DNA from: Planctomycetota bacterium
Lineage (GTDB): Bacteria; Planctomycetota; UBA1135; UBA2386
Direction: 5' to 3'
Assembly: GCA_947501605.1 (NCBI GenBank)
Contig: CANMWZ010000007.1
Span: 1 to 64,000 of the forward strand
DNA: 64,000 nucleotides
Made by a program: the position numbers. Every line of letters begins with the position of its first letter. Position 1 is the stretch's first letter. Below are positions 26,301-35,300 of this stretch, piece after piece.

Positions 26301-29300
26301 AGGCGCTGGGTGATCTGCTGTGAGAGAGGGCCTTGGATCGCGATCATGCCGAGCGCTTCGGTCTGGTCCTCGACGCGCACGTCAAAGCCCTTCGCGACGC
26401 GGTGCATGATCTCCAGATCGCGGGCGGCGTTCCCGGCGTTGATGACGACGAAGAACTCCTTGCCCTTCGACGCCCAATCCGCTGGCTCGCGGTACACCAG
26501 GATGTCGTCCTGCGTGATGCCCTGTTCATTCAGGATCATCGCGTAGCGGATGCGTCCGGGCAGAATCTGCGAGGCGTCGTTCGTCTGCAACTTCTGCAAG
26601 AAGGCCTCGGCTTCTGGCCCGCGCACGCGGACGCGGCCCATGTGGCCGAGATCGAAGAGCCCGGCCTTTCCACGCACGACCCGAGCTTCGTCAAGGATGC
26701 CGCGGTACTGCACCGGCATGTTCCAGCCGGAAAACGGCACGATGCGAGCGCCGAGGCTCGCGTGAACGGATTTGAGGGCGGTGTCGCGCATGGCGGTTCT
26801 GCGAAGCGACGCACTCTACGGACGAGCTGCTGCGAAGGCACGCGTGCGGTTCGGCTCTATCCCGCATCCCGCCGGCTCCGCTTCAGCCGCCAAGCCGGCG
26901 AGCGAGCTCATCGTAGTCCGCAGTCCGCACGTCATCCTGTCGAAGCGGCGGCAGCGAGCGGAAACGGTCGCGCTCGTTGATCGAGAGGAAGTCATCCCGT
27001 CGATGGCGACGCGGGGCGTCGGCCGCGCGCCCCGTGTGGCCGCCGTCCGAGTAGACGCCTGGCTCTTGCTGCCCCAACTCCGTTTGCGGCAGTTCGAACA
27101 GCGGACCGAACTGCTGCAAGTCCTCGAGGTTCTCGGTTGGGACCTCCGCACTGCGGACGGTGGAGCGGCGGGCGATTCCGTGGTTGCCAGGTCGAACCGA
27201 GCGCCACGTGGCCCGCTCTCCAGTTTCCTCGAAGGGCGACCCAACAAAGCGAGCCTCGACGCCTTCGGCAGCCGGCCGCAGCTTGGAGAAGCGCTCGGGA
27301 TCGACGGCGCGCGCATTGCTCATCTCGCGGCGATAGCCGGAGAAATCGCCCTCGCCCAACGCAATCCGACCAAGATGGACGTACGCGGTGAACTCGTCCC
27401 CACCGAGTCGCAGCACTCGTTCGAATGCGCGGCGCGCGGTCGCGTGCCGGCCGAGCCGGAACGCGATCCGTCCGCCAAGGCTGGCAGTGGCTGCAGTAAG
27501 CCGCTTCAGCAATCGCGCCATCACTCCGAACATCGCGGGAGGACCTTAGAGCCCGAAGGCAGCGGTGGCAAGGACCCCACGAAAGCCGGGTGGGGACCGA
27601 GAATCCGGCCGATGGCATGGTGCGATGAGGGCACCGGATCGGTGTTCGGCATGCGCCGCGGCGGTTTGCCGACTGGCGTGATCTGTAGCCCGCGGGGCGA
27701 TGCCACCGTCCGCCGCGGCTTGCCTCAACGCCTGTGCACCGCACAGCCGATACCCCACAGATCCGCCGGAGCACGTACCGCTCCGCTGGGCACACCGTCA
27801 CATGGCACTCCGAGGGGATCTAGCAAGCGTCGACCTGGCTCAGGTCTTCCAAATGCTTGCGCTCAACAAGAAGACGGGGCTGCTGAGCATTCAGTCGCCT
27901 CGGCTCTGGGAGATCCTCTACTTCCACCCGCGCGGCGTCACCCTCTACTACAACCCGCATACGTTGCTGGATCGCTCCCTCCAGACCTTCGTACGCGTGG
28001 GTCGGGTGCAGCAACGGGCGATCGACGAAGTTCGTGACCACGCCGGCCGCAATCAGTTGGAGCTCTGGGACTCGCTCCTTGCGGGTGGCTACCTGACCGA
28101 GGAAGAGCTGGTCGCTCAGGTCCGCTACGAGGTCGAAGAGGAGATCTACGACCTGTTCTTCTGCCGCGACGGGCGCTTCGAGTTCCTCGAGGGCAAGTCC
28201 GAGCTATCCGAGCGCCCCGGCGTCGTGGATCAGCGGTTCTTCTTCAATACCGAGAGTGTGATCATGGAGGCTGCCCGTCGCATCGACGAGTGGTCCTACA
28301 TCGCCGAACGCATCCCCGGTGGGCTCGAGGTTTACCGCAAGGTCGGCCGCAGCAAGGCGCCCGACAAGGTCGGCGAAGAAGGGGCCATCGTCTTCGACTG
28401 CGTCGATGGTCGCCGGACGGTTGCTCGAATCGTCGAGGTGTCTGGCCTCTCGAACTTCGTCGCGTTCAAGATGCTCAGCCAACTGCTCGACGCCGGGCTG
28501 GTCGAGCCGTTGGATCCAGACCATCTGGTGAAGCACGGTCAGGCATGCCTTCGCGAGAACCGGCCCGAGGACGCAGTCAGCCTGTTCGAGAAGGCGATCG
28601 AGTTGGAGGTTGGCCTGCCCGAGGCGCATTCTCTGGCGGCGCAGGCCTATGAGCAGGTTGGGCACTTCGAACTGGCCGTCTACCATTTGAAGTGCGAGGC
28701 CGAGTACCGCATCGCCGCGGGCGATCGCCGCACGGGCGCCCAGCGATTGCATGCTGCGACCCAAAAGCTGCCGACCGATCTCGGGGCGCGTGAGCGGCTG
28801 GTGGAGGTTCTGCTCGCACACCACGATGCGCGATTGCCTGACTTCGACGCGGTGGCAGAAGGGAAGACGCTGGTCGATCTCTGGATGGCTGCTGGTGACC
28901 TGCAGCGCGTGCGCGGGCTGCTGGAGCGCTTGCTGACGGTGCGGCCGGACGACATCGAGCTGAAACGACAACTCGTCAACGTCCACACCAAGGCCGGGGA
29001 TCAGGCCCGCGTGGTCGAGCTCTATGAGTCCATTGCCAAGACCCTGGTCGCGGATGGCCGACCGATCGAGGCTATCGCCAACCTGCAGAAGATCCTGATG
29101 CTGGACCGGTCGCGGCGCGATGTCGCTGACCAAGTGCGCGTGCTCTATGCGCAGGACGAGCGTTCTCGCCGCCGTCGTCGTTCGTTGGCGACTTTGGGCG
29201 CCTTCTGCCTCTTGATCGTCGCACTTGCCATCGCGTTCAACGTCTACGACCAGACCGCCATCGTCGAGTTGGACCAGATCGATGTTGCGGCGATGGTCGC

Positions 29301-32300: not shown

Positions 32301-35300
32301 GCTCCACGAAGGCGGACTAGGCTCCTTCGAGACGTTCACGCTGCACGCCGCCCACGGCAAGGCCGTCTTCTGCGACATCGGCGAGAGCTTCCTGGTCGTC
32401 CTGCTCGACCAGTTTGCGGACCTCGAGGCCGGTCGCAGCGAGATCCAGGGCGCCGTTCAGCGTCTGCGGCGCAGTTCTCGCCTCGGCTCCTGAGCGAGGC
32501 GGTCTTGGCGCCGCCTTGCCGCCGTCGCCACTCGCGCCAACACGGCGCGGATGTGGCGTCGTAGCCACTACTCGGCATCGACCGTTCCCGGCGCCGGGGC
32601 TAGCCGTCGGCCCCGTTCTAGAACGGGGTGGAGCAGGATGCCGACTGCCTTGGATCTTTCGCTCAAGCAAAGGTGCGGGAAAGGCCGATCACCGATCGAC
32701 GACCCGAGCTGGCGGCTCCGTGCTGGAGTCCGTGGAACCGAGTCGTCTCACCGCCTGCTGGGAGTGACCTGATTCATGGTCCAGATCAACTTCGCACTGA
32801 AGGAAGTCAACTGCAAGATCGTCTTCTACGGCCCGGGTATGAGTGGCAAGACCACCAACCTCGAGATCGTTCATCAGAAGGCGCCTGAGGAGAACAAGGG
32901 CGAACTGACGTCGATCTCGACCGATGGCGACCGCACGCTGTTCTTCGACTTCATGCCACTCGACCTCGGCAACGTGGCTGGCATGCGAACGAAGTTCCAG
33001 CTCTACACGGTGCCTGGTCAGGTCTACTACAACTCGACGCGCAAGCTCGTGCTTCAGGGTGTCGACGGAGTCATCTTCGTCGCCGACTCGGATCCGGAGA
33101 AGATGCCGGAGAACATCGAGTCGTACCAGAACTTGATCGAGAACCTGACCGAGTACGGCAAGGACGTTCGCGAGCTGCCGCACGTCATCCAGTACAACAA
33201 GCGCGATCTGCCGAACGCGATGTCGGTCGAAGAGATGGACCGCCACTTGAACAAGTTCGGCGTGCCGACCTTCGAAGCGGTTGCTTACACCGGTGAGGGT
33301 GTGTTCCCGACGCTGAAGACGCTGGCCGGAATGGTGCTCGAGAGCATCGACCGCATGGACAGTCGCAACACCCGGCGCCCAACCGCGGAGGCCGCGCCAC
33401 GCGCTGCGGCGCCGCGCGCCGCCGCTCCGGCTCCCGCACCTGCTCCGGCTCGGGGTGGGGCACCGAAGCCCGCCGCCGGGCCGATGAAGAAGGCTGGAGC
33501 ACCAGCAGCCCGGAATGCACCAGCGCCGCAGAAGGCAGCCGCCGCGCCAGCTGGCGCCGCGCGTCCGGCCAAGAGCCAGGCGCTGGCTCCAGCTCCGAAG
33601 GGCAAGGCTCCGGCTGCGCGTCCAGCGACGCCCAGTCACGCCTCGCCGGCACCAGCCGCTGCCGTCCGCCGCCCAGGGACACAGGGTCGCCCGGCGCCGA
33701 CGCTGCAGAAGGCCAAGAAGGGCGGTGCCGGTGTGATCATCGGGCTGTCCGTCCTGTTGCTCGCCGCCGCTGCCGGCGTCGTCTGGTTCTTCACTCGCGA
33801 AAACCTGCTGTGACCCGGAGGGCGCTGCCATGACCAACCCCAAGAAAATGACGCGCAACGACAAGCTGCGTCACGACCGGCTCACCTTCTACAAGGACGA
33901 CATCGAGCAGATTGACAAGCTGCTCGCCGAGTTCCTGCGGCTGTCGGGCGCAAAGTGCGCGCTCCTCATCGACAAGGAAGGTCACCTGGTCACGAAGCGC
34001 GGTGAACTCCGCACCATAGACATTGACACGATCTCGGCGCTTGTTGCCGGGTCGTTTGCAGCGACCAAGGAGATGGCTCGGCTGCTCGGTGAAGAAGAGT
34101 TCACAGCGATGTACCATCAGGGTGAGCGCGACAACATCCAGCTCGGCCTCGTGGGGGATCGCACGCTGCTGACGATTCTGTTCGATGATCGCACGACGGT
34201 GGGCATGGTCCGCCTCTACGCCAACGAGACCGCAAAGAAGCTCGCGGACATCTACAAGGCGTCGATGAACCGCCAAGGCGATGACCCTGGTCTCGGCGAG
34301 GCCTACGGCCAAGACGCGAAGAAGTCGCTCGACAAGTTGTTCGACTGACGACTGCCGCAGCGATCAACGACGCGCGATCTTCCATGCACGCGGCGCGCAC
34401 CTCGAGCGATCGGGGTGCGCGCCGCGTGTGCATTCTGGATGGTCGTTGCGTCCTGTGTGCCGCGTGTCGTTCGGGCGCGTCGATTCTCGCTGCGATGCGA
34501 GTCCGCGCGATCGAAGTCCCTGCATGCGGCATCCTGCAGCAGCATCGCGGCGCCAAAAAGTTGGAGATTCTCGAAGAAAAATCGCAGTCCACCTCGAGGC
34601 CGTGTCGAGGCCATAAATGATGGCGATCTTCTCTGGATAGAATCGAGAAAAATAGCGATTCGCAAATCAATCGAAAAGCGCGTGAGCGAGGTATGTGCCG
34701 GTGGCTGCGGAGTTTCCGGTGAATCTCGAATCACCATGCGCCGATCTACATCGGAGATCAGGCGCGGGTCTGCTTCGCCGTGTTGCGCCCACCCCTTGAT
34801 CCCACAACCCTAAACAAGGACTGAGACATGGCTGCCAAGAAGAAGACCACGAAGAAGGCGACGAAGAAGGCGACGAAGAAGGCTGGCAAGAAGAAGGCCA
34901 AGCGCTGAACCGCCAGTAGGAGCCTTCGGGCTCCGAACCAAAGCTTCATACGAGGCCCGGACTTGTCCGGGCCTCGTTCTTTTGTGGGGCGTGGGTTGCG
35001 CGGTTGCCCGAGTTCCCTGCCAGCCTTCCCCGCAGCCCTGCAATCCTCTCGCGCTTCGCCGGCCCAGAGTCAGTTGGCAGAGTCAGTTGGCCCCGCCCCG
35101 CGCAGCGGAGGGGAATCAGTGCAGCCGGTGACCGGGCTTCGCGCCGCTGTCGGGCGACAGCAGGAAGGCTTCGCCATCGCCGCCAGCCGCGATGACCATG
35201 CCTTCGCTCAGGCCGAACTTCATCTGCCGTGGTGCCAGGTTGGCGACCATCACGACTAGGCGGCCGACGAGTTGTTCTGGCTGGTAGTAGGCCTTGATGC

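Follow-up and report, generated by a model that had tools for sequence, protein, structure and literature searches.

Does a bacterial Ras-like switch work while fixed to the membrane? The question is raised by an mglA gene in the 64,000-nucleotide stretch of Planctomycetota DNA analyzed here (the window). The survey's finding was of a 345-residue MglA, the only stand-alone one of its genome, which was read as tail-anchored behind a hypervariable linker. M. xanthus-type MglA, a known regulator of cell polarity, is described in published abstracts as cytosolic and moving between the poles.

The reading frame (32776..33813, forward strand) starts at ATG and encodes the 345 residues claimed for it. 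The G domain (residues 3–192) matched the solved MglA of M. xanthus and T. thermophilus (PDB 5ymx, 6h17 and 3t12) over its whole length, with E-values of 5.2e-73 for 5ymx_A and 1.5e-66 for 3t12_A, and was modeled by AlphaFold2 with pLDDT above 90 for most of the domain. It has the P-loop GPGMSGKTT, an intrinsic arginine beside the G2 threonine (Arg53-Thr54), TVPGQ and NKRD, which, with an adjacent mglB, resemble Group 1 as defined in a passage of Wuichet and Sogaard-Andersen 2014 (PMC4316618). The P-loop, Arg53-Thr54, TVPGQ and NKxD do not vary across 54 aligned planctomycete MglA sequences. From these motifs, we predict a catalytically intact Group-1 MglA GTPase. A G-domain search of the genome gave two matches, the other being a fusion with HisKA and HATPase_c, and the gene is indeed the only stand-alone mglA.

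One source labels many homologues of this protein 'SRP receptor beta'. That receptor is a small Arf-like GTPase with one transmembrane (TM) anchor at its N-terminus; the window MglA is likewise a small GTPase with one predicted TM anchor, but at the C-terminus. A Pfam scan at E ≤0.01 listed Arf, Gtr1_RagA, Ras and Roc and no SRP receptor beta model. The closest solved structures are those of MglA by 60 orders of magnitude, and we regard the label as a naming artefact.

Table 1 Features of the mglA cluster, with positions along the window.
Feature	Position	Strand	Basis
PATAN (DUF4388)-TPR-TM-PQQ/BamB-like propeller protein, 1068 aa (TM predicted)	27802..31008	+	Pfam, hydropathy
TPR-Roadblock fusion, ~364 aa, approximate start	31040..32134	+	TPR_19, hhalign
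Stand-alone Roadblock/LC7, 120 aa	32131..32493	+	Robl_LC7 E 6e-8 (Pfam)
MglA G domain, residues 1-194	32776..33357	+	5ymx_A match, invariant motifs, pLDDT
MglA hypervariable linker, residues 195-317	33358..33726	+	Composition, pLDDT 45-56, low identity
MglA predicted C-terminal TM helix, residues 318-341, with end TRENLL and stop codon	33727..33813	+	Hydropathy, insertion energy, AlphaFold2
MglB, 172 aa	33830..34348	+	6h5b_B; NCBIfam MglB model; Robl_LC7
Terminator-like hairpin, 12-bp stem, T-rich tail	34950..34977	+	Pattern match

The solved MglA chains are 195–203 residues long and tail-less, whereas the window MglA continues for a further 150 residues that end in the predicted TM helix. The linker (counted as residues 195–318, 124 in all) contains 45 Ala, 25 Pro, 12 Arg, 10 Gly and 10 Lys, with 22 K/R against 2 D/E. 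Its description as low-complexity and Pro/Ala-rich stands, while the share of P/A/G/S/K/R/T/Q, earlier put at 83%, is 93% on recounting. AlphaFold2 modeled residues 200–317 with no secondary structure and pLDDT of 45–56. Among 115 database hits of at least 300 residues, the median identity to the window MglA is 93% for the G domain, 28% for the linker and 48% for the TM helix and tail, and the linker thus deserves to be called hypervariable. Across the planctomycete TM-anchored MglA its length ranges from 77 to 299 residues, and 89 of the 92 linkers have a positive net charge. Short tandem repeats occur in the linker DNA, which is GC-rich and of low complexity. The GC-rich composition of the genome could account in part for a basic, Pro/Ala-rich linker.

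The most hydrophobic 19-residue stretch of the window MglA is VIIGLSVLLLAAAAGVVWF (residues 320–338, Kyte-Doolittle mean 2.55), preceded by KAKKGG and followed by seven residues. AlphaFold2 placed a lone helix at residues 318–341 (pLDDT ~90), and the summed insertion energy of the tail is -1.9 on a Hessa-type scale, which is also used below. Scans of hydropathy and insertion energy found no second hydrophobic segment in the protein; no N-terminal signal peptide was found, and the tail has no Cys or CAAX-type end. The 'Lys-Lys patch' of the earlier description is present as KAKKGG, but the simpler reading is that of a TM helix flanked by positive-inside residues, not of a distinct patch; at least two K/R lie within 10 residues upstream of the helix in 64 of the 92 planctomycete TM-anchored proteins. 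The sequence and the structure model support an MglA that would be TM-anchored through this C-terminal helix.

We compared the tail across planctomycetes. The earlier database count was reproduced: in 116 of the top 120 hits, a segment of at least 19 residues with mean hydropathy above 1.8 ends no more than 15 residues from the C-terminus, and the four that lack it are 258–296 residues long. Of 115 distinct planctomycete MglA sequences, 92 end in a hydrophobic helix and are classed as TM-anchored, 17 are cut by contig ends, two are masked and four (families f11 and f47) end in a basic amphipathic motif with no helix. The helix is therefore found in 92 of 96 complete, unmasked sequences, from a non-random sample composed of the top-scoring loci and 60 chosen from 150 listed matches, with 214 more matches outside it. 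None of the MglA-like frames read in three paralogue-rich genomes has a C-terminal helix. A tree placed all planctomycete MglA on one side of a branch with 100% SH-aLRT.

The 92 tails keep the anchor, not its sequence. A median of six residues follows the helix (15 or fewer in 86), and the lowest Kyte-Doolittle score is 1.43. Summed insertion energy is below zero in 80 tails and zero or above in 12; no 19-mer of a G domain or of a non-TM class sums to less than +7. Members of the window MglA's own family share a conserved motif of small residues in the helix, AAAAGV[VA][WY]F. Mean net charge is +2.0 over the 12 residues before the helix and +0.34 after it, a bias that fits a positive-inside topology in which the G-domain side would be cytoplasmic. 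Four RNA libraries, from two studies, contain contigs that span the linker and helix with 0–1 differences and no indels; occurrence in such libraries is not proof of transcription. Since the design is nearly universal in the sample, the MglA switch probably acts while tied to the membrane.

Outside the planctomycetes, we found 18 long MglA orthologues (292–560 residues) in Zixibacteria, Ignavibacteriota, some Fibrobacterota and one Acidobacteriota. They end in ...KK[KR]GFFKRLFG[ILV]K or variants, a short basic amphipathic helix nearly identical in motif to the C-terminal membrane-targeting sequence of E. coli MinD, given as KGFLKRLFGG in a passage of PMC5471200. Membrane binding by MinD needs ATP-driven dimerization, according to an extract of PMC8155659. 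The likeness to MinD is confined to these relatives, as the window MglA has a full TM helix instead. No MinD scored above the model's cut-off in five genomes with amphipathic-type MglA. The occurrence of two unrelated anchor types at one position argues that membrane tethering itself would be the selected trait. The tail-anchored architecture is borne out at the sequence level by hydropathy, the AlphaFold2 helix, conservation in 92 of 96, charge bias and MinD-like replacement. The putative tail-anchored class is broader than first described: it spans most sampled planctomycete sequences, with another anchor type in other phyla.

The genes around mglA are on the same strand and are those named earlier (DUF4388/PQQ, TPR and two Robl_LC7 genes). 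The first encodes a protein with DUF4388 (residues 4–165, E 2.3e-21), PQQ_2 (E 1.1e-20) and several TPR models in Pfam; DUF4388 is equated with PATAN in part of bioRxiv 10.1101/2021.06.11.447907. Its one mid-protein TM segment (residue ~461, Kyte-Doolittle 2.49) follows ERSRRRRR, and a comparable segment is present in 9 of 12 planctomycete orthologous frames of at least 800 residues. The protein is predicted to span the membrane once, with its C-terminal propeller beyond the helix. The second has N-terminal TPR repeats (TPR_19, E 3.3e-11) and ~115 C-terminal residues that are Roadblock/LC7-like: with 53 such domains as the query, hhalign gave 98.2% (E 6.2e-14) against Robl120 and 94.4% probability against MglB, and the Pfam Robl_LC7 model itself recognizes the counterpart from Zixibacteria (25.3 bits against a cut-off of 23). 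Roadblock genes do flank mglA as claimed, but the cluster has three Roadblock domains, not two. The stand-alone Roadblock gene overlaps the stop of the TPR-Roadblock gene by four bases, and its product is closest to 7f8m_A among solved structures (E 3.3e-7). Downstream, mglB begins 16 bases past mglA. Residues 17–171 of its product align with 5–158 of 6h5b_B (E 3.1e-28), reaching the C-terminal end, and the NCBIfam MglB model matched with E 6.5e-29 and 101 bits, under its 200-bit cut-off. By these matches it is a true MglB, the predicted GTPase-activating partner of MglA. The hairpin, ~600 bases past mglB, is a possible end of the transcription unit; five such pattern sites were found in the region against 4.5 expected.

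This linkage is common to the planctomycete TM-type loci, where mglB lies directly downstream in 86 of 88, a Roadblock gene just upstream in 78 of 91 with enough flank, and a TPR-Roadblock gene upstream in 77 of 89. Roadblock-mglA-mglB is the common order for the tailed forms; in the short Gemmatimonadota forms, mglB precedes mglA at 7 of 11 loci and follows it at 0 of 9. The order here also differs from the mglB-mglA of Myxococcus, and the cluster holds two Roadblock domains more. Where a planctomycete locus had 5.5 kb or more of flank upstream, a PATAN gene was present in 10 of 18 cases; among amphipathic-type loci it was present in 11 of 12. In the latter clusters the PATAN proteins are ~400 residues long and mostly lack TM helix and propeller, and a membrane protein with 2–5 hydrophobic segments and a Roadblock-like end is encoded.

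The same architecture could serve another job, a receptor-coupled G-protein system and not a polarity oscillator, in which the periplasmic propeller would sense a cue from the envelope or from outside, to be relayed to tethered MglA by the PATAN-TPR part in the cytoplasm. This we consider unlikely, although the predicted single-pass protein with its propeller past the TM helix behind RRRRR, the frequency of PATAN genes, the membrane protein of the amphipathic-type clusters and the histidine kinase fused to the genome's second MglA-like G domain all fit it. It recalls the actinobacterial conservon (CvnA-D, with a Group 2 MglA), which co-encodes a membrane kinase, an MglA-like GTPase and a Roadblock protein and is described in part of PMC4316618 as a membrane-associated G-protein complex. 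There, however, the kinase is the membrane protein and the GTPase is unanchored and, in the same source, lacks the intrinsic Arg finger, whereas the window MglA is self-anchored and of Group-1 type. The amphipathic-type PATAN proteins mostly lack TM helix and propeller, which puts a periplasmic sensor outside the conserved core, and the Group-1 MglA studied to date function in polarity and motility. The receptor system and our preferred explanation can both hold.

It is far less probable that the hydrophobic end is no lasting anchor, but a cleaved sorting signal of the PEP-CTERM/sortase kind, a site where regulated intramembrane cleavage would free the G domain, or a hydrophobic oligomerization or degradation tag. 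C-terminal hydrophobic helices do act as sorting signals in exported proteins, the AAAAGV[VA][WY]F motif could support helix-helix contacts, and cleavage following insertion is compatible with the data. In those sorting signals, though, basic residues follow the helix, whereas here they precede it; an NCBIfam scan of the window MglA at E ≤0.01 found no sorting-signal model. The protein has neither signal peptide nor other hydrophobic segment, the G-domain values lie far from insertion, a GTPase partnered with cytoplasmic MglB has no reason for export, and other phyla have a peripheral membrane-binding helix at the same position. An assembly error, frameshift or false read-through into a small downstream membrane ORF can practically be dismissed: the linker DNA is of a kind that might mislead and contigs often break there (the 17 cut sequences), but the continuous frame recurs in 92 distinct sequences of many families, in the indel-free RNA-library contigs and, as a helix, in 116 of 120 database proteins.

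The layout invites two comparisons. Eukaryotic Ras, Rho and Rab proteins have a G domain, a hypervariable region, a polybasic stretch and a lipid anchor; the window MglA likewise joins a conserved G domain, a fast-evolving basic segment predicted to be unstructured and a C-terminal anchor. In place of a prenyl or palmitoyl group, the window MglA has a peptide helix, and its end has no Cys. The eukaryotic-like design proposed earlier therefore holds as an analogy of layout and not as homology of the tails, and there would be no obvious membrane extraction in the manner of GDI. The TM anchor is compatible with later proteolytic release of MglA. We know of no Ras-superfamily GTPase among described bacterial tail-anchored proteins, though no exhaustive search was made. 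Such proteins, with E. coli examples in part of PMC6794478, share with the window MglA a sole TM domain at the C-terminus, no N-terminal signal and a cytoplasmic bulk. The silence of the literature on tailed MglA is explained by the reference census of small GTPases in prokaryotes, from which sequences above 240 residues were left out.

The sequences show the architecture, how well it is conserved and how the genes are linked. For insertion and topology we draw on hydropathy, structure prediction and comparative patterns, and we further infer the partners and the role in the cell; on this footing we propose a membrane-tied Group-1 MglA, an explanation that we hold as a whole to be likely. The 24-residue helix would cross the cytoplasmic membrane with only seven residues on the far side. 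The G domain would stay in the cytoplasm, held by the basic, Pro/Ala-rich linker of 124 residues, for which no structure is predicted and which by a rough estimate would give it a range of the order of 10 nm. The GTP/GDP switch would then run in two dimensions on the membrane surface. MglB, encoded next door, would be its GTPase-activating protein, and the likely regulators or effectors are the stand-alone Roadblock, the TPR-Roadblock fusion as its predicted partner, and the PATAN-TPR protein with its predicted periplasmic propeller. A polarity or pilus role is borrowed by analogy from Myxococcus and cyanobacteria. Of 401 genomes of the phylum, 392 have PilT-family genes and 226 have MglA, proportions that make co-occurrence uninformative on a pilus role. 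According to parts of bioRxiv 10.1101/2021.06.11.447907 and PMC4316618, PATAN genes regularly have MglA/MglB genes beside them, and regulators of the PATAN type bind the motor of the pilus. Because PATAN and MglA are both tied to pili elsewhere, type IV pili are the leading candidate for the output of this switch, which may be the spatial control of an envelope machine.

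The mglA reading frame reported in the survey was found to be real. In a search of solved structures, its G domain (residues 3–192) aligned end to end with MglA from Myxococcus xanthus (5ymx_A, E 5.2e-73) and Thermus thermophilus (3t12_A, E 1.5e-66). After the MglA chains, the next solved matches were eukaryotic Rab and Arl proteins (E ~1e-5), and the Pfam matches to Arf, Ras and Gtr1_RagA exceed their cut-offs. In the available portions of the 2014 MglA census, Group 1 is described by an intrinsic arginine adjoining the G2 threonine and by TVPGQ, not DxxGQ, as G3 (PMC4316618). 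Across 54 aligned planctomycete sequences, D52-R53-T54 is invariant and places an intrinsic Arg finger next to the G2 Thr, T78 V79 P80 G81 Q82 is invariant and supplies TVPGQ as G3, and the P-loop GPGMSGKTT (G1, GxxxxGK[ST]) and NKRD (G4, NKxD) are likewise unchanged. The coupling of Group 1 to an MglB gene is also present, with mglB 16 bases 3' of mglA. Judged by these sequence marks, the protein has a Group-1 G domain with an intact catalytic set (P-loop, Arg53-Thr54, TVPGQ, NKxD). Its length exceeds the 240-aa single-domain limit of the census, a limit that is operational, not biochemical. A second MglA-like G domain lies on another contig of the same genome (C22, locus L002, 46% identity), as part of a 560-aa GTPase-histidine kinase fusion with HisKA and HATPase_c.

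Following the G domain, linker residues 195–318 (124 residues) comprise 45 Ala, 25 Pro, 12 Arg, 10 Gly and 10 Lys among others, with 22 basic versus 2 acidic residues. The share of P/A/G/S/K/R/T/Q, previously put at 83%, came to 93% on recounting. Over 19 residues, hydropathy is highest at VIIGLSVLLLAAAAGVVWF (Kyte-Doolittle mean 2.55), which ends 7 residues before the C-terminus and has KAKKGG in front. AlphaFold2, using 54 aligned relatives, gave a confident G domain, no secondary structure for residues 200–317 (pLDDT 45–56) and a lone helix at 318–341 of 345 (pLDDT near 90). This is the sole TM domain and sits at the extreme C-terminus; no N-terminal signal sequence or second TM segment was found, the best 19-mer in residues 1–190 summing to at least +7, and in relatives Kyte-Doolittle values outside the tail stay below 1.2. 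Within the family of the window protein, a small-residue motif, AAAAGV[VA][WY]F, is kept in the TM helix (homologues P0002–P0040) and is missing in other families; it might serve helix-helix packing.

The database homologues repeat this layout. As the survey had counted, in 116 of the 120 best matches a strongly hydrophobic stretch stops no more than 15 residues short of the C-terminus, and the 4 without it are 258–296 aa long. Where an organism is given for these 120, it belongs to Planctomycetota, and the names attached are 'MglA', 'GTPase domain-containing', 'ATP/GTP-binding' or 'signal recognition particle receptor subunit beta'; clusters in the ESM Atlas are automatically named only MglA, Arf family or hypothetical. 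Against the window protein, the 115 of the best 120 that are at least 300 aa long have median identities of 93% (G domain), 28% (linker) and 48% (helix plus tail), so that 'hypervariable' is a fair word for a linker at 28% against a G domain at 93%. The survey's interpretation is supported in part: the tail-anchored architecture is well supported as a reading of the sequence, and the function in polarity is putative. We consider it very likely that the window MglA is membrane-tethered.

The C-terminus, ...VVWFFTRENLL, has no Cys and so lacks the Cys-containing prenylation motif of Ras/Rho/Rab; the likeness to these lipid-anchored eukaryotic proteins is one of design only. An SRP receptor beta is contradicted by the position of the anchor, which is N-terminal in that protein and C-terminal here, by the lack of an SR-beta Pfam match and by MglA being the best solved relative. 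Sorting signals of the PEP-CTERM and sortase type pair an N-terminal signal peptide with a C-terminal motif, helix and basic tail; here there is no signal peptide, the basic residues precede the helix, and no NCBIfam model of such signals matched at E ≤0.01. A local assembly error at the tail is ruled out, because metatranscriptomic contigs from four libraries in two studies cover mglA with 0–1 differences and no indels, one of them running through the linker, helix and stop into mglB. These contigs are strandless and come with no silent control region, so their presence is not proof of transcription.

Of the 401 planctomycete genomes sampled, 226 have a G-domain match at E ≤1e-30; among the 244 that are at least 90% complete, 120 do. 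Presence is nearly all-or-none by family. We read 169 MglA frames (158 different) from the window locus and 29 other loci of the phylum scan, 60 further places and 80 named loci from species-representative genomes. The 60 were chosen from the 150 matches listed (8 for short open frames, 12 for low identity, 40 to cover unseen families); the planctomycete sample is non-random, and 214 further matches lie outside it. It contains 115 different planctomycete sequences: 92 have a TM-like helix at the C-terminus, 17 run into a contig end, 2 have withheld bases and 4 end otherwise; of 8 apparently 'short' frames, 7 stop at a contig end and 1 is masked. In the 92 TM-type sequences the linker spans 77–299 residues (median 125) and has a positive net charge in 89, and the helix is followed by 0–76 residues (median 6; at most 15 in 86). 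The mean charge is +2.0 in the 12 residues before the helix versus +0.34 after it, a positive-inside bias that agrees with a G domain on the cytoplasmic side, as does the cytoplasmic character of MglA and MglB. Summed insertion energy, a simple sum on a Hessa-type scale, is below 0 in 80 of the 92 tails, and no G domain or sequence of another class falls below +7. The helix sequence is conserved within families only.

The 17 cut sequences (L115–L118, L120–L122 and 10 other loci) break off within or just before the linker, and assemblies seem often to break in its GC-rich repetitive DNA; truncated 'short' MglA genes would consequently show up in databases. The 4 exceptions belong to families f11 and f47, end in ...PLFRKFKKFL... 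and form their own clade (99% SH-aLRT) with planctomycete TM-type sequences as nearest neighbours. Genomes of the f11, f47 and f41 lineages hold 3 to 13 MglA-like matches each, and no TM helix was found in the frames read from these paralogue-rich genomes. The paralogue sets (10 matches in genome G008, 13 in G038 and 3 in G047; loci L175–L198) range from ~200 aa to >1000 aa.

Outside the planctomycetes, 18 MglA orthologues of 292–560 aa among the 80 named loci lack a TM helix; their C-terminus reads ...KK[KR]GFFKRLFG[ILV]K, with close variants. They come from Zixibacteria (8), Ignavibacteriota (5), Fibrobacterota outside the genus Fibrobacter (3), Acidobacteriota (1) and one unlabelled record (loci L071, L075–L077, L082, L084, L090, L094–L096, L099, L105–L110 and L112). 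E. coli MinD is described as targeting the membrane through KGFLKRLFGG (PMC5471200), a sequence that acts as an amphipathic helix (PMC8155659). The GFFKRLFG[ILV]K end of the 18 orthologues, not that of the window protein, resembles this motif; the comparison is with the published E. coli sequence, since none of the 5 amphipathic-type genomes searched has a MinD above the model cut-off. The class was set by a motif rule, an Eisenberg moment of at least 0.6 having caught only 1 sequence.

Further forms were seen. Five Fibrobacter sequences (L080, L081, L083, L087 and L088; 313–331 aa) end in ...DD[ED]IELRPY[VI]PKKK, lacking both a TM helix and the amphipathic motif; none has a Roadblock gene upstream. 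The 11 Gemmatimonadota sequences belong to the classical short type (192–209 aa), and a Sumerlaeota sequence (L091) with a segment of Kyte-Doolittle 1.58 lying 65 residues from its end was classed as 'other', not TM. In a maximum-likelihood tree of G domains, unrooted and with Myxococcota and Deinococcota outside the sample, planctomycete sequences fall on one side of a branch with 100% SH-aLRT. A 409-aa MglA from a record labelled Nitrospinota (L067) forms a long branch among them and has a non-hydrophobic C-terminal extension; its placement could reflect mis-binning, gene transfer or a tree artefact. Because long, variable linkers terminate in a TM helix in some MglA proteins and in a peripheral membrane-binding helix in others, membrane attachment itself is probably a trait maintained by selection, as these sequence patterns would otherwise be hard to explain.

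We compared the gene neighbourhoods of these MglA classes. The window mglA is flanked by the only two Pfam Robl_LC7 matches of its genome: upstream, the gene of a 120-aa Roadblock protein, and downstream, that of a true MglB (6h5b_B, E 3.1e-28, alignment through the C-terminal end). The neighbour known from the survey as a TPR protein proved to be more than that, its last 115 residues forming a third Roadblock-like domain (hhalign 98.2%, E 6.2e-14 versus the 120-aa family); a Zixibacteria counterpart matches Pfam Robl_LC7 directly. The first gene of the cluster encodes PATAN (DUF4388), TPR, a TM helix after RRRRR and a PQQ/BamB-like propeller. With the TM helix in mid-protein and the propeller C-terminal to it, this protein should span the membrane once and place the propeller outside.

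Counts by single-sequence phmmer searches, which are lower bounds, differ between the classes. Planctomycete TM-type loci have mglB downstream in 86 of 88 and upstream in 0 of 91, a Roadblock gene upstream in 78 of 91, a TPR-Roadblock gene upstream in 77 of 89, and PATAN in 10 of the 18 long-flank loci. For amphipathic-type loci of other phyla the figures are 18/18, 0/18 and 15/18, with TPR-Roadblock at 0/17 by this query and PATAN at 11/12. Short MglA genes of Gemmatimonadota have mglB downstream in 0/9 and upstream in 7/11, Roadblock upstream in 2/11, TPR-Roadblock upstream in 0/11 and PATAN in 5/7. Since neighbour counts differ by MglA class, tailed MglA has its own operon type. Each of 5 amphipathic-type clusters inspected by eye contains a TPR-Roadblock protein and a small membrane protein. 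A membrane protein with 2–5 hydrophobic segments and a Roadblock-like end (~115 C-terminal residues) was recovered in 15 amphipathic-type clusters; this end gave hhalign 97.8% and E 7e-13 versus the 120-aa family, with a profile that includes 2 shorter related frames. In L094 and 14 counterparts its gene lies directly 5' of the 120-aa Roadblock gene, and the protein has no Pfam match.

The TPR-Roadblock domain and the 120-aa Roadblock protein were predicted to form a Roadblock-style dimer (score 0.88, best control 0.02), passing a mark that 116 of 157 solved complexes reach, as do 2 of 215 mismatched pairs; runs agreed in at least 98% of contacts, with partner pLDDT of at least 88. Roadblock dimers are abundant among solved structures, so the predicted dimer shows likeness and not binding; it makes no distinction between hetero- and homodimer, and we treat it as a lead only.

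The Roadblock gene and mglA, separated by 282 bases in the window, nearly abut in most other families. No promoter-like site was found in this gap or in a scan of 27000–35200, where terminator-like sites are no commoner than in shuffles. After mglB, ~600 bases have a G+C of 0.57 versus 0.62–0.68 in the intervals around them and are closed by a strong terminator-like hairpin; the stretch contains no Pfam-matching ORF and no Rfam match, and Rfam and tRNA scans of the whole window gave no matches.

Coordinates of the mglA cluster, adjoining features and loci read for comparison.
Feature	Sequence	Position	Strand
PATAN-TPR-TM-propeller gene	window	27802..31008	+
TPR-Roadblock gene	window	31040..32134	+
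Roadblock gene (120 aa)	window	32131..32493	+
Gap, Roadblock gene to mglA	window	32494-32775	
mglA (345 residues)	window	32776..33813	+
RNA-library contig reaching mglB through the linker	window	33248 to 34400	
Second RNA-library contig	window	32928 to 33855	
TM helix with small-residue motif	window	33727-33798	
mglB	window	33830..34348	+
Low-G+C stretch	window	34349-34977	
Terminator-like hairpin	window	34950-34977	
Second MglA-like G domain	C22	55063-55623	-
GTPase-histidine kinase fusion	L002	388-2070	-
Membrane protein with Roadblock-like end	L094	6599-7633	+
Nitrospinota-labelled MglA	L067	6138-7364	+

We propose that the C-terminal helix would be inserted in the membrane with the G domain in the cytoplasm, where ~125 residues lacking predicted structure may, by rough estimate, let it explore a layer next to the membrane on the scale of 10 nm. 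MglB, as the GAP, would switch MglA off, and the extra Roadblock proteins and the PATAN-TPR protein may regulate MglA or receive its signal. This explanation, taken whole, is likely. According to two papers (bioRxiv 10.1101/2021.06.11.447907; PMC4316618), regulators with a PATAN domain bind the motor of the pilus, and PATAN genes are often found next to those of MglA/MglB; together these reports suggest a link to type IV pili. Co-occurrence was rejected as support for this link: a PilT-family gene above cut-off is present in 392 of 401 genomes of the phylum, and this near-universal presence does not discriminate, so the PilT-family genes of the window's genome add nothing.

Two further readings were weighed. 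The first, which we regard as somewhat unlikely, holds that tethered MglA is the common Group-1 form across several phyla and possibly ancestral, the free pole-hopping MglA of Myxococcus and Thermus being derived. The tethered GTPase, its GAP MglB, the TPR-Roadblock/Roadblock pair and PATAN would then form a membrane-surface G-protein module, with polarity arising from local regulation and lateral capture, not from cytosolic shuttling. Its logic would parallel that of Rag-Ragulator and like eukaryotic systems, with an anchored switch, Roadblock-fold regulators and a fast-evolving leash. The second is that the cluster functions as a receptor-coupled G-protein module; the same architecture is compatible with this, and we judge it unlikely.

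For the tail-anchored MglA itself, what is new is a predicted, widespread mode of membrane attachment and an operon type; the GTPase family is known. No report of a membrane-anchored MglA was found in the full-text literature searched, which leaves out most subscription journals, and passages from two papers that mention both MglA and Planctomycetes describe no planctomycete MglA. Homologue P0104 carries a precomputed Pfam accession, PF28211.1, and the annotation of that family could bear on novelty. The 2014 census left out sequences >240 aa and, in the portions available, lists no Planctomycetes among its Group-1 lineages and mentions membranes only for other proteins (PMC4316618). That length cut-off hid a large part of the MglA family.

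MglA is the textbook bacterial Ras-like switch, and to our knowledge all mechanistic work on it concerns short soluble proteins moving from pole to pole. If the MglA of most planctomycetes and of several other phyla is membrane-fastened, the shuttling model would not be general. Spatial control would instead arise as it does in eukaryotic cells, by switching the GTPase on and off locally at a surface, and leash length would be a tunable parameter. The conserved five-gene module offers candidate partners in the extra Roadblock protein, the TPR-Roadblock fusion and the PATAN protein, and thereby an entry point to planctomycete cell polarity, in a group where budding and the unusual membrane organisation are little understood.
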